Assembly (NCBI GenBank): GCA_036867785.1
Contig: CP145421.1
Span: forward strand, 1,054,001 to 1,118,000
Source: Plasmodiophora brassicae
Taxonomy: Eukaryota
DNA: 64,000 bases
Direction: 5' to 3'
The position numbers and the translations under genes are program-made. Position 1 is the stretch's first letter, and each line of letters starts with the position of its first letter. This document shows, one piece after another, positions 30,183 through 60,865 of this stretch. The notes beneath the pieces are model-generated. The model searched no databases and was not told where the DNA came from. It saw nothing but the letters and a program-made list of their open reading frames with translations.

Positions 30183-33100
30183 TTATGAACGGATACCATT
30201 GCATCTGTAGAAGAGCAGCCTGTAGACGCGCTTGTGGAGCAGGCTAGCCACTTGGGACTCTCCATACCGCACTAGGCGATTGGTGTCGCAGAAGACCCAG
30301 GAACCACCGGGTTGCTTGACCCAGGATATATAATGCCCTTCATCGTGCCCAGCCAATTGGGTGTCACTACCCTGGTAATCGACCAGGCCAACGAGATCGA
30401 AGTACGCTCTGCCAGTCTGAAACGTCACTTCTGGCACCACGTCCTGCCCACAGGAGATATCAGACATCCAAGAGATCCACCCATCATCATCGCTTGATGT
30501 CCTGCACCTACCACCGTGGTCCTACGACGCGCCATGCTGATCTGCGCTCCGTCAGGGCCGGGTTGCTGGACGATCTCCATCGGATCCTGCCGAACAATCA
30601 ACAGTGACCCCGGCGTTGGACTCCTGGCCATGTGGCGGAACGTTGTCGACCGGTGCTCGACATCGTGACCAGGTTGGCAGGGAACGTTGGAGGTGCACCT
30701 CCTGGTGATCGTCTCCGACTGCTCCCCGACCAGAACCGTTGAGAGTTTGACTCGCCGGTGGCAGCCCTGCAGCATGACGACGGGCTGCTGACAAGGCGGG
30801 CGCGACGAGGCATGGCCGCAGGTGGCACACGTATCAACCACGTGTTCGACGAACTCGACGAGACTGCCAACAATCGGCTGTCCATCAGCGCCGACCATAC
30901 GGTATGCCTCCATCTGCGATAGCAGTTCCAGGACGAAGTCGTCTGCGTCGTGCTGATGTCCGGCAGGAAACGACCGTGTCGCCCGGTCGGCGTTGCCCAG
31001 GCTGCTGATGAGCTCAACGAGCGCGTACGACGCCACGTTCGCATCCAGGCGGGGGTTCATCACCTGGTTGAACAGGCCCACCCAGGGCGCGTCGCCCGAC
31101 ACGCGGTGCCATCCAGGCAAACGACGCAGGATATGGACCGGTGCAATGGCGAAGCAAATCTGCCGGCAGACGCCGGCCGCATCCACGTTCGATATGCCCG
31201 CTGGAAGTAGCGTGTCAGCACCACACTCCTGAACGTCAACTTCAGCAGCGTCGATGACAATTGGATCGCGTTTCGTACCTGCGCAGGAGGTTCCGACCCT
31301 TGGGCGGGATCGCTGTGGGCGATTCGTTCGGTGCGGCTCGAACGGTCGACAGCAGGTCGTTCGTGGACCTGCAGTTATTGCACGCATGTCAGCTGTCTCC
31401 CTCGCCACAGTACCGGCGTTGGCAATTGGCAAACCTGTCTGCGCTTCCTCGCTGGGCGTTTCGCGAGGAGAGCCACTTGAACCCTCCTCCGCTTGCAAGT
31501 AAGCTTGGGTGCCTGCAATGTCACGGGGGTTCAGTCTACACCCCGCTCGCAATACCTTCTAACCCAAATCACCCTGTACTCCGACGACCTGGAGGACGAC
31601 TCGCAAACGTCGTTCGTGTCCTGGGACGGTGCGTCGCTGTCGTCGTCGCTCGACATCGGGTCCACATCCATCGTACTCTGTTCAGGCCCACAGTGGATCA
31701 GCAGGATTGCACAATCAAGGCGAATATCATCAGTACACGTACAGTTCGTCGGCACCTGATTGCCGACCGGTTCTGCAGTAGTGCTGCCCGCCGACTGGTT
31801 ACTGTCCTGCGTACGGGGCGGCGCTCGTCACCGGCGTCGTCTCCTGCACCGCCGTCCTCAGATCCGTTGGCACCGGCAACGTCGATGCCGCTTCGCCGCC
31901 TTCGGACGGCGTCCAGGTACATCGGCACAAGCCGGGCAACGAGCGACGCGATCCGCTCAACGACGACATCGTTCTGGCGCCTCGACGTCAGGACGATGAG
32001 TTCGATCGCCACCAGCAAGACGTCGTAGGTGTGCTTCGTCGCGCACCAGACCTCGTTGAGCTTGGCGCCGACAGCGCCGATCAGCATGAGTTCGTGGGCG
32101 AAGTCGTCCCACTCAACCGCGCCTGCGTCCAGCGACCTGAGGACCGCCGACATGTCGACGACGTGGTCATCGCCGTCCCGCTCGTCAGCGTTCCTCTTCT
32201 CACCCACGTACGTCAACACTCGTCGACCGAGGCCGCGCGCATGGAAGATCATAAGGATGATCCTCTGCTGCAGGCCCCACTTGGACAGGTCCACGGGTGA
32301 CGGCCACAGACCAGACACGCTCTTGACGAGTTTGCTGACCTGCGTCGACATCTGCCGGGGCGACTTCGACAGTTCAATCGTGTCGTCGACGCAGGGCCTC
32401 TGAACCAGCACCGCGTTGTGTGGATCGCCCAGGAACCCGTCCCAATCGACCAAGACCGGGGTGCCTTTCCCGTCCTTCCTCGAATGCATCACGCCCATGA
32501 TCAGGGCCATGGCTTCCCACGGCCAATGCCGGCGATGCTTGTTCCCGTGGAAGGCGGACGGCAGCGGCAGCTCCGCCCACGACCCTTGAGCCTGCGCCAG
32601 GGTGACCGACCGCGACGACAGCGGGACCTTGCTGATCTGCAGCGATCCAGCTGACGTCAACGGTACGATCAGGTCGGGATCACAGAGTGGCGGGACCAGC
32701 ATGACGACCTGCTGGAGGATGTTCTTGAACTCGGCGGTAGGCACCCATCGACCCGCCGGACGCTGGCGCAGTGCACGACGCTGGGCCGGGCTGCTGTCGC
32801 CGGACGCCATGAGCATGCGGAGATAGGCGTCGGTGACTCGCTCCGGAGGCGCATCAACAAGGACGACGGGAGGATGTACGACACGGCCATCCCAGCGTAG
32901 ACGCAACGACACGTGAATGACATCACGCCCCAGGGCTCGGCGCCTGCCTTGTACCCTCGTCACCAACGCGCGCATGACGTCGGCCTCTCGGAAACGACTA
33001 AGCGGCACGATGGACATGACGTCACGCCAGAGCGCTACGTGCGGCAGCGTGTCCACGCCGGGCGACATCCAATTGAATGCCACCCACTCGGCGAACGTGA

Positions 33101-59500: not shown

Positions 59501-60865
59501 CACGTCATTGTGCGGAGACTTCAGGTCCTGAATCGCCGGGAATCTGTCCGACTGGAGAGGGACGATCGCGTCCGGCGGTATCAGTGGCGGAATGCATACC
59601 ACAATGGCGCGCAGCATGGCGACAACAGCGCCGTTGGAGAAGCGACCGCTGGCCGCCTGCTGGCGCTCCAGCTGACGGCGGTCCAGCTGATCCGGGTTCA
59701 AGCATAGGTTGGCAAATTCGACGGTGACACTGGGCGGCCTATCGACCAGGACGAAGAACGGGCGAGTCACTCGCCCATGCCTGGTCAGCTTCAGCGAGAC
59801 GTGGACAGGGTTTCCGGCGACCCACTGCTGGTCGATCAGCTGAATCATCTTCAGCGCGATCTCGACTCTTGACGCGTTCTTCTGGACACTGCAAAGGTCG
59901 TTGAGCAAAGAACCGTGTGCCGTGCGCTCGGCAGCGCCCGACGTCCACCTCGTCGCAAACCAGACAGCAAACGGAACTGGTTCAGCCGTCTGCGCCGTCG
60001 CTGGCAGGTCGGCTCCATCAGCTCCGAGTTTGCCCAGGTGCTCTCGACTCGGCAAGAAGGCAGCGAAGTTGTAGTCGGCGGGGTCGTTCAGGCCAGGACG
60101 CGCATGGCGATGTTGGACGCTACGATCGAGGACGCCCAGCTGTCGGAGACGGTCGTACGTGTTGGCCTCTTCGGCCAGCAGAAGGTTCTTCGCCATGAGA
60201 TGTGCCGTCAGCGCGCTGTTGACGAGCTCTCGCAGACTGACATGGACGAGCCTGATAACCGCGGCAAGACTGTGAAGGCGTCCGCGGCAGCCGAGCTCTA
60301 GCACCAGAGCCATGACGTCCAGGGCCTCGTTGCGCCCGATAAAGGATGGTCGTCCACCGACGCACGCCAGGCGGAGCATGTCGATGACGTCAGGGTCGAA
60401 CCAGTACCTGCCAAAGGCACTGCAATGGCGCAAGTAGTTGAACCTGTTGCGCTCGCAGAGCCAGGGGCCGAGGACCGATGCCGGTGTCATCGTATGGTAA
60501 AATCGGTTCGGGTTGATGGAGGATGAATCAAAAAGCGCATTAAGCGCGTCCTGGCCGATCATCACCACCAGCGTCTGGAAGCGTTGGAGGCACATCATAT
60601 TGAGGCTACGGACGCCTGGGGCGATGTCGCGCCGCATCGCATCCAGCATCAGCCGCGGGAACGGCCGGTACATGTAATTAAAACAAGCAGGAACCAAATC
60701 CGTAGGGCAAAGGGTAGAGCGCAGGGGGCTCCAAATATAGCGCTTCGCGGCGAGGCATGTGCTGCTGCTGGCCGCCAGCCGACCGTTTGCCAGCTTGCAT
60801 GTGGTATCGGCGGGTCGTGTTCCCGGCCCAGGCTGGCCAGCCGGGCCAAATTGGCATGGCAACAA
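56579..60865 (-). CDS. Diverged paralog C: C-terminal half of the central region spliced to an inactive USP-like domain (5' part unresolved, may extend to ~61800)
   Basis: ORF 58628..60865 aligns with copies A/B (FPRLM, DALNALFDSSSINPNRFY, NLL..E...YD.L, HVSL.L...GRV, DPH..VL.QRP, HAR.LG...Y.G). Intron 58620-58684 and three further introns join it in frame to ORFs 58188, 57460, 56902 and 56579. USP-like AVQVL, CKSC..CASC, YFVCQD, AAFYDY. Confidence 0.7.
58289..58460. repeat. 2 x 90-bp tandem repeat in the Arg/Ser-rich linker of paralog C
   Basis: cagacctggaccgcgccctgcctcgagtggaac at ~58288 and ~58379. Confidence 0.9.

Follow-up and report, generated by a model that had tools for sequence, protein, structure and literature searches.

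The window, i.e., the whole stretch of 64,000 nucleotides of Plasmodiophora brassicae DNA that was analyzed, harbors a very large intron-containing gene, the Ulp1-Y-X-USP cassette, whose product is flanked by a SUMO-type and a ubiquitin protease. We consider it likely that this gene is represented by two intact, expressed paralogs, copies A and B, and that these go back to the tandem segmental duplication of a ~14-kb block. An earlier note on this DNA had taken the cassette for the coding portion of an undescribed large DNA element, which found no support in the window: the cassette is one spliced gene, and it carries no transposase-like domain. The alternative offered in the same note, namely, a gene family expanding in a region rich in transposable elements (TEs), fits the data better, and a selfish or mobile origin of the cassette is unlikely. 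The coordinates of the features are compiled in Table 1.

Table 1. Cassette copies, their exons and introns, and neighboring repeats in the window
Feature	Positions	Strand	Details	Evidence
LINE copy 1	10342-13119	-	RVT_1, E 2.7e-19; part of the duplicated block	
USP remnant	16779-17017	-	last 79 codons of the domain; 67% protein identity to B	tblastn
LINE copy 2	24251-26667	-	endonuclease and reverse transcriptase; RVT_1, E 9.8e-24; in the duplicated block	
Copy A, Ulp1-Y-X-USP	30183-38171	-		tblastn, Pfam C48
Copy A, matched parts	Ulp1 38152-37304, Y 37296-35851, X 35834-31701, USP 31558-30189	-		tblastn
Copy A, Ulp1 exon	38152-37333	-	introns 37332-37278, 37079-37026, 35856-35796	RNA-like contig, frame
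Copy A, X exon	down to 31743	-	3' introns 31742-31678, 31434-31369, 31278-31229, 30511-30444	alignment with B
Copy A, stop codon	30185-30183	-		
LINE copy 3	38174-41025	-	5'-truncated, without endonuclease part; RVT_1, E 1.2e-20	
Crypton-like tyrosine-recombinase element	41115-43486	-	single frame of 786 codons (ORF 43475-41115)	residues, fold
0.9-kb unit, reference copy	43731-44622		decayed, non-coding	blastn
0.9-kb unit, other copies and fragments	6465-7418, 13154-13519, 14169-14406, 15087-15759, 17220-18107, 18734-19699, 20043-20336, 29832-29976, 54532-54923, 55648-55958			
Copy B, Ulp1-Y-X-USP	44876-52654	-		tblastn, Pfam C48 and UCH, spliced contigs
Copy B, matched parts	Ulp1 52633-51803, Y 51787-50709, X 50610-46624, USP 46150-44879	-		tblastn
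Copy B, Ulp1 exon	52633-51823	-	introns 51822-51772, 51588-51533, 50690-50641	GT..AG joints, frame
Copy B, X exon	50640-46630	-	introns 46629-46572, 46355-46298, 46225-46170, 46124-46060, 45969-45920, 45202-45137	
Copy B, stop, end of USP	44876	-		
B-specific upstream region	52655-54150	-	no counterpart elsewhere in the window	blastn/tblastx
Copy C	58721-60670	-	C-terminal half of X only (X residues 680-1324)	tblastn, alignment

Gene structure and protease domains

Inside copy B, seven GT..AG joints on the minus strand were found in all three RNA-like runs, which stem from three studies, and in none of the one DNA-like run (X14). Runs X15, X17, and X19 were taken as RNA on the basis of these joints, which are absent from X14; their RNA status is otherwise an automated guess. 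Single contigs bridged Ulp1, Y, and X (record 13 of X15 and record 21 of X19), and another led from X into USP (record 15 of X17). Since RNA-like contigs thus bridge Ulp1-Y-X and X-USP across GT..AG introns, the three parts form one gene. Once spliced, copy B has a frame that is open for ~2,415 codons. In copy A, removal of three introns leaves 2,080 open codons before the X-USP intron is reached, and the two introns seen between its Ulp1 and Y frames, in addition to the joints of B, restore the frame; one RNA-like contig covers A from 38151 to 37331, continues for 198 nt, and then runs from 37023 to 36331. Intron positions are conserved between the copies, with aligned GT..AG counterparts in A for four of the six 3' introns of B. 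Coverage of A's X region was nil in X17 and sparse in X15 and X19; read-depth figures were used neither as copy number nor as expression level. In the annotated model of copy B (P0001; 2,052 aa), the Ulp1 part is missing, and a partial model that is 100% identical to copy A (P0002) covers its last third only.

Both ends of the gene were recognized by Pfam. Peptidase_C48 matched A with an E value of 5.4e-22 (79.1 bits) and B with 1.8e-20 (74.2 bits; cutoff 20.7), in either case over model positions 2-211 of 217. UCH matched the largest exon of B from model position 76 onward (E 2.7e-7; 30.9 bits vs a cutoff of 23.9), and PF00443 is precomputed for P0001. By eye, the Ulp1 His, Asp, and Gln..Cys motifs and the USP His box can be read in A and B; the USP Cys box appears atypical. 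Together with tblastn, the Pfam matches bear out the earlier view of A and B as minus-strand copies, both of which are intact. In these matches the cassette resembles C48 and C19 deconjugating enzymes, from which it differs in that both domains lie in one polypeptide of ~2,400 residues, around a 1,700-residue core that matches no family.

The encoded protein, predicted to comprise ~2,400-2,500 codons, would consist of an N-terminal Ulp1/SENP-type protease (C48), Y plus X, and a C-terminal USP-type protease (C19); the central Y plus X, of ~1,700 residues, appears to be lineage specific and free of recognizable domains. Searches of Pfam, PHROGs, NCBIfam, and PDB profiles detected no relatives of X of known function: X, Y, and the metagenome protein P0003 (see below) gave no Pfam family at E up to 0.01-5 and no match in PHROGs or NCBIfam, and the X alignment retrieved nothing in the PDB profile search. 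ESM Atlas searches with X and with P0003 returned no usable match, and an AlphaFold2 model of X built from a six-row alignment (pLDDT 37) was too poor for a fold reading. To judge from its two domains, the protein most likely strips ubiquitin and SUMO-like modifiers, with both protease domains presumably active as enzymes and the targets perhaps chosen by the central region. To our knowledge, no protein in which Ulp1 and USP surround a large core has been described.

Tandem duplication of a ~14-kb block

The repeats in the window amounted to 68 direct HSPs (24.2 kb), as opposed to 2 inverted HSPs, both of which are self-palindromes. They form colinear chains that pair 6465-16997 with 18734-30407, 24616-38171 with 39748-52654, and 43733-48600 with 54532-60670, at offsets of 10.8-15.2 kb, and that take in the LINEs and 0.9-kb units beside the cassette. 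Unrelated flanks are thus common to the paralogs, in the same order and orientation and at regular spacing. As the repeats are all direct and lie in colinear chains that include a LINE and the ~1-kb unit, the pattern is that of a tandem segmental duplication of a ~14-kb block, and it is because this block was duplicated whole, with its flanks, that the copies have a common strand and a common downstream unit. The copying mechanism was presumably unequal crossing-over. In this process, a block with the gene, a LINE, and the non-coding 0.9-kb repeat would have given rise to A, B, the half copy C, and a stub, followed by divergence, decay, and later insertions (the Crypton-like recombinase element and LINE pieces).

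Copies A and B share 79% protein identity over Ulp1, 41-64% over Y, 50% over X, and 56-63% over USP, and their nucleotide identity is 84% over Ulp1 and 65-68% elsewhere; the similarities between the copies far exceed chance (E = 0 to 1e-29). The values of dS between A and B were 1.66 for X, 1.07 for USP, and 0.30 for Ulp1, and dN/dS ranged from 0.28 to 0.39. Given the 50% protein identity of X and a dS above 1, A and B are old paralogs, and they are under purifying selection. Gene conversion between A and B appears to have occurred over Ulp1, which would correspond to an exchange between the copies at their 5' ends after the block duplication.

Homology between A and B ends at 38171 and 52654, respectively (blastn, tblastx). 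Copy B had previously been extended to 53313, but 52655-53313 is specific to B; the B-specific upstream region of which it is part probably contains a promoter or 5' exon. Other runs contain an A-type Ulp1 that has a close copy of 52676-52779 ahead of it, and in an X14 contig A's Ulp1 continues at 38173 not into LINE copy 3 but into sequence resembling the B upstream region at 52676. Copy C, which is 30% identical to A at the protein level, is devoid of Ulp1 and Y, and no USP was detectable by similarity and Pfam searches of ORFs 56579-58161. The former description of 56579-60865 as a diverged paralog therefore stands for 60670-58721, which matches X, but not for those ORFs, which have no significant similarity to USP. 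The USP remnant that the note had reported is real (Table 1); its nucleotide identity is 75-77%, and its Pfam UCH match (E 0.011) is under the cutoff.

The TE-rich surroundings of the copies were confirmed in the form of three LINE copies and one tyrosine-recombinase element. LINE copies 1 and 2 share 48% protein identity and are colinear at an offset of 13.2 kb, and copy 3 is 34-36% identical to both; the Exo_endo_phos_2 match of copy 2 (26.2 bits) is slightly below the cutoff of 27.4. The 3' end of LINE copy 3 abuts the start of the Ulp1 ORF of copy A. The copies of the 0.9-kb unit, all of them direct, are 64-72% identical, with one pair at 85% (blastn). A decayed unit of ~1 kb had been said to follow each cassette copy; it does so after B (44622-43731) and after the remnant (15759-15087; 70% over 683 bp), but behind A only two fragments of ~150 bp were found. 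Furthermore, the window contains the unit at no fewer than 10 additional sites, some of them upstream of cassette copies and all in the same orientation, so that it is not specific to the cassette. There was no sign of coding in it, its protein similarity being below its nucleotide similarity, and since Rfam and tRNA scans of the window gave no match, it is not a recognizable SINE or RNA gene.

A Crypton-like element and the family beyond the window

The recombinase ORF between A and B belongs to a Crypton-like element that is separate from the cassette. Its residues R361, K396, H491, R494, H517, and Y526 are invariant in all eight aligned sequences, and a Foldseek search with its structural model (pLDDT 70) retrieved Cre recombinase (E 2.5e-6, probability 1.00); PHROG integrase matches were weak. 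The 5' end of the element, at 43486, adjoins three different flanks, namely, in the window, at loose ends of X14, and at a joint in X15, and the window repeat search revealed no TIRs. With Crypton DNA transposons it shares a lone tyrosine-recombinase ORF that has the R-K-H-R-H-Y residues, the Cre-like fold, the absence of TIRs, a small size (~2.4 kb), and a fixed 5' end next to differing flanks. Unlike Cryptons, it has no Pfam match, GCR1_C and DUF3504 included. As the cassette's own enzyme the recombinase was rejected, since it is present once in the window vs four cassette copies (tblastn) and the block comparison identified it as an insertion specific to the B block.

When 1.84 billion proteins were searched with a profile, 14 matched, and 13 of these were short, decayed A-, B-, or C-like fragments. 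These fragments are 50-88% identical to the window copies and represent at least seven further distinct fragments; three named ones are located on P. brassicae contigs of 746,515, 1,368,189, and 630,556 bp, and one is fused to a LINE fragment in a gene model. Among the database proteins, there were two full-length matches to X, which are A and B, and the Ulp1 search retrieved nothing beyond the window's own ORF. Confinement to a tandem locus, as considered in the earlier note, hence applies in the protein databases to the two intact copies but not to the decayed fragments. None of the named relatives yielded an ortholog in the protein databases. The sole relative outside was the metagenome protein P0003 (E 4e-57); metagenome scans with P0003 and alignment A1 returned no locus for it, and a viral-contig scan with A1 was empty. 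Rearranged forms were present in other runs, in which an A-type transcript joins 36331 to 29884 without splice signals and a joint inside the X of B "goes back 1180"; none of the structural variants removes the whole cassette cleanly. A literature search, supplementary tables aside, brought up no publication dealing with a Ulp1-USP gene or with P. brassicae Cryptons.

Origin of the cassette and its significance

An undescribed large DNA transposon or selfish element with the cassette as its coding part, X, or Y plus X, as a new transposase, and the proteases as accessories is improbable. This reading draws on a family that is multi-copy and mostly decayed, with some fragments on other contigs, since a mobile or selfish element would leave such a dispersed, largely dead family in its wake; in addition, the family is nearly limited to one species, every copy lies among TEs, and rearranged or internally deleted variants exist in other runs. 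Ulp1 (C48) genes are also known to accompany DNA transposons, oomycete Cryptons among them (PMC3212892), and in having a C48 gene and partly decayed copies among TEs the cassette resembles MULE/KI-MULE, Zisupton/KDZ, CryptonF-2_PS, and the CryptonS elements of oomycetes; a Crypton-like recombinase gene even adjoins one of its copies. However, the cassette has no transposase or recombinase inside, no termini, and a Ulp1 fused to USP and a large region of no known family, and searches of Pfam, PHROGs, NCBIfam, and PDB profiles gave no transposase, integrase, helicase, or polymerase signature. The flank alignment suggested in the earlier note as a way to shared termini revealed no shared end, TIR, or LTR in the window: homology between A and B stops at the coding limits, and the flanks of B hold no inverted or direct repeat pair. 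Moreover, the LINE and the unit that flank the copies are common to them and colinear, which indicates block duplication and not insertion, and all copies have a single orientation. The age of A and B, the purifying selection on them, and their nine to ten conserved small introns also argue against a transposon, as does the fact that the two full-length copies, the only ones found, lie side by side. Nor do we give much credence to the idea that plasmodiophorids harbor a selfish or mobile family not seen before, with Ulp1-Y-X-USP as its one giant gene, the 1,700-residue core of which mobilizes DNA by a new kind of activity or rides Crypton-type recombinases. Were the cassette mobile, one old insertion would have been amplified secondarily into the tandem array, and past spread would have left the dead fragments on other chromosomes.

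Still less likely is that the cassette travels as cargo of the Crypton-like element, with recombinase and Ulp1 gene forming a composite as in Phytophthora Cryptons with C48. The recombinase ORF does lie upstream of A on the same strand, with only the truncated LINE between them, an X15 contig sets the recombinase 5' end beside sequence like that upstream of B at 52934, and a C48 protein is part of the coding capacity of some CryptonF and CryptonS elements (PMC3212892). There is, however, no recombinase near B, C, or the remnant, the block comparison shows it as an insertion in the B block only, and a 5' end next to three different flanks implies that the element acts as a small independent unit. 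A role of the genes as a rapidly expanding family of secreted effectors that remove ubiquitin or SUMO from host proteins is also quite unlikely, even though the copies are in a TE-rich, structurally variable region, CE-clan Ulp1-like effectors are reported from bacterial pathogens, and spliced transcripts are present in X17 and X19, which are labeled as another organism and possibly represent infected host tissue. Against it stand the very large size of the protein, which has no defined N-terminus or signal peptide, a dN/dS of ~0.3 with no sign of diversifying selection, and a literature search without a paper tying such a gene to clubroot. A gene family amplified by tandem block duplication resembles known tandem gene clusters in repeat-rich, structurally variable regions of pathogen genomes, where, as for the cassette, same-strand paralogs are regularly spaced (here ~14 kb apart) within colinear flanks, the edges hold partial copies, sequence is exchanged from copy to copy, and isolates differ in structure; it differs from them in that its block holds a LINE and a satellite-like unit and that fragments are found on other contigs too.

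Taken together, these data do away with the attractive "new transposon" reading, which they do not support, and correct the public gene models, both of which hid one very large protein of a crop parasite with a SUMO-type and a ubiquitin-type protease. The pairing of these domains around a large core without known relatives is unusual and can be tested by ordinary enzyme assays. The locus also provides a worked example of a repeat-rich, variable block in a compact protist genome that results from block duplication, exchange between copies, and LINE and Crypton-like insertions.

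Structure of the two-protease gene

The earlier note had described a same-strand repeated cassette of a Ulp1 protease (peptidase C48), a middle part X and a USP protease (peptidase C19), and its observation was largely right. Using tblastn with parts of copy A, we recovered copies A and B where they had been reported, with protein identities of 79% for Ulp1, 41-64% for Y (a linker between Ulp1 and X), 50% for X and 56-63% for USP. At the nucleotide level, identity was 84% for Ulp1 and 65-68% for the remainder, and the homology extended from 38171/52654 at one end to the stop codons at the other. 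The USP remnant was also confirmed. Copy C, regarded previously as a diverged cassette paralog, contained the C-terminal half of X and nothing beyond, and none of the ORFs tested below it showed significant similarity to USP.

Features of the window and colinear segments
Feature	Position	Strand	Remarks
Copy A	30183-38171	-
Copy B	44876-52654	-
Copy C	60670-58721	-	30% identity
USP remnant	17015-16779	-
Repeat unit, reference copy	43731-44622		~0.9 kb, decayed
LINE 1	10342-13119	-
LINE 2	24251-26667	-
LINE 3	38174-41025	-	5'-truncated
Crypton-like tyrosine-recombinase element	41115-43486	-	~2.4 kb; 786-codon frame 43475-41115
Protein-kinase-like ORF	8622-9533	+	partial domain (Pkinase, E 3.2e-15); flanked by LINE 1 and a repeat unit
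381-codon frame	1148-2293	+	recurring ~30-residue motif; no Pfam family
Tandem array	16121-16469		period 175 bp, 2.0 copies
Tandem array	28287-28876		period 173 bp, 3.4 copies
Colinear chain	6465-16997 with 18734-30407
Colinear chain	24616-38171 with 39748-52654		LINE 2 + unit + A with LINE 3 + unit + B
Colinear chain	unit + B's X with 54532-60670

The reading as a three-gene cassette was not borne out: Ulp1, Y, X and USP form a single spliced gene. At least half of copy B's sampled words were present in 20 of the 24 listed public runs, and contigs from three RNA-like runs of three studies (X15, X17 and X19) and one DNA-like run (X14) were compared with 33500-53499. Seven internal joints of copy B have minus-strand GT..AG ends; every one of the RNA-like runs carries them, and the contigs of the DNA-like run have none. 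Single contigs lead from X across a 50-nt intron into Y and ~790 nt past 51532 (X15 record 13, X19 record 21), a stretch expected from its position to be Ulp1 exon sequence, and X17 record 15 starts at the USP end, crosses six introns and reaches X. For copy A, one contig (X17 record 14) has 198 nt between the Ulp1 exon and Y; it fits two small introns, 37332-37278 and 37079-37026, both beginning with GTTGGT, which remove the apparent Ulp1/Y frameshift. With the introns out, the frame of copy B is open for ~2,415 codons, from Ulp1 to the USP stop, and that of copy A for 2,080 codons, as far as the X-USP intron; four of the six 3' introns of B have aligned GT..AG partners in A. Taken together, the splice joints, open frames and shared introns indicate that A and B are DNA-level duplicates of one spliced gene.

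Searching 5.8 billion proteins with copy A's long middle ORF gave two matches, both of them Plasmodiophora brassicae proteins. P0001 ("Cysteine proteinase", 2,052 aa) agrees with the copy B sequence save a few residues and is its gene model, and P0002 ("USP domain-containing protein", 872 aa) shows 100% identity with the final third of copy A. The Ulp1 part is absent from the public gene models of both copies. P0002 is recorded on a 747,440-bp contig, and a 2026 preprint (10.64898/2026.10.14.759018) describes a ~67-kb TE-rich block, the most divergent, on the 0.747-Mb chromosome 17. The window may be this block, which is only a lead since the contigs given for further window proteins differ in size. 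The preprint terms the block LTR-dominated, whereas LINEs were seen in the window.

Divergence and rearranged forms

Between A and B, dS and dN/dS (Nei-Gojobori) were 1.66 and 0.28 for X, 1.07 and 0.29 for USP, and 0.30 and 0.39 for Ulp1. By these estimates, both copies are old and constrained, and the much lower dS of Ulp1 points to a later exchange between them at the 5' end. A stretch matching B's upstream region 52676-52779 (two differences listed) also occurs in front of A-type Ulp1 in other runs, which fits such an exchange. In contigs of other runs, A's Ulp1 start (38173) was joined to B-like upstream sequence (52676) without LINE 3 between, and the 5' end of the recombinase element (43486) to B-like upstream sequence (52934); the arrangement upstream of A thus varies among isolates.

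Rearranged forms of the region occur in contigs of other runs. An A-type transcript with a joint from 36331 to 29884, present in all three RNA-like runs, breaks off midway through Y and resumes directly after the stop codon of A, skipping 6.4 kb; the joint lacks GT..AG ends, has only 2 nt of common letters and may reflect either a copy with an internal deletion or an unusual event at the RNA level. RNA-like contigs also contained plus-strand GT..AG joints (38613-39306, 44033-44088 and 47443-47726), which mark spliced RNAs that are antisense to LINE 3, that pass through the repeat unit and that lie opposite the X exon of B. Inside B's X (47745-48924), contigs of X15 and X14 showed a joint going back 1180 and an opposite-strand joint; a rearranged, near-identical B fragment is present somewhere.

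Origin of the copies

The window has a G+C content of ~60% and many decayed repeats. RVT_1 was found in all three LINE copies and an endonuclease match in one; the two tandem arrays occupy corresponding places in two neighbouring blocks. The unit said to follow each cassette was indeed found after B and the remnant, whereas behind A and C it is fragmentary, but it is not restricted to them, being present in constant orientation at at least 10 further places in the window. Nothing in it suggested coding, and neither Rfam nor tRNA scans recognised it.

The proposal that the cassette is the coding part of an undescribed DNA element found no support in the window. No inverted or direct repeat pair was found to flank copy B, and self-comparison gave 68 direct HSPs (24.2 kb) versus two inverted ones, both self-palindromes. 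The colinear chains, with offsets of 10.8-15.2 kb, reveal that the duplicated segment takes in LINE and unit to either side of the gene. Block duplication explains the common strand, the regular spacing and the shared downstream unit without transposition of the cassette. X and Y had no matches in Pfam, PHROGs or NCBIfam, X did not match PDB sequences, and work on X by metagenome and viral scans, the Atlas and structure all yielded nothing.

A link between the cassette and the recombinase element between A and B has a low probability; we kept it as a rival because Cryptons with a C48 gene are described from oomycetes (PMC3212892). Our literature searches turned up no Cryptons reported from Plasmodiophora. 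The recombinase frame had no Pfam match and was weakly matched by PHROG integrase models; R, K, H-x-x-R, H and Y are invariant across it and seven database relatives (22-53% identical), and its model (pLDDT 70) resembles Cre recombinase (Foldseek E 2.5e-6). The 5' end, 43486, adjoins three different flanks (in the window, at loose ends of X14 and at the X15 joint to 52934), and an internally deleted form is seen in an X14 joint from 41340 to 42911. The frame belongs to a small Crypton-like element that entered a single block, and it was rejected as the cassette's own recombinase.

Against 1.84 billion representatives, the X profile gave 14 matches, namely, a 990-aa metagenome protein of unknown organism (E 4e-57) and 13 short fragments with 50-88% identity to A, B or C. 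Where these fragments overlap, their sequences are not the same, which implies at least seven further copies of the family. Three named fragments come from P. brassicae, their contigs measuring 746,515, 1,368,189 and 630,556 bp, and one such gene model fuses a LINE piece to a family fragment. These dispersed fragments, like the rearranged forms in other runs, speak for a repeat-like family. The better account of the copies is a large two-protease gene family in which tandem duplication of a block of gene, LINE and unit has amplified the gene within a repeat-rich, variable region.
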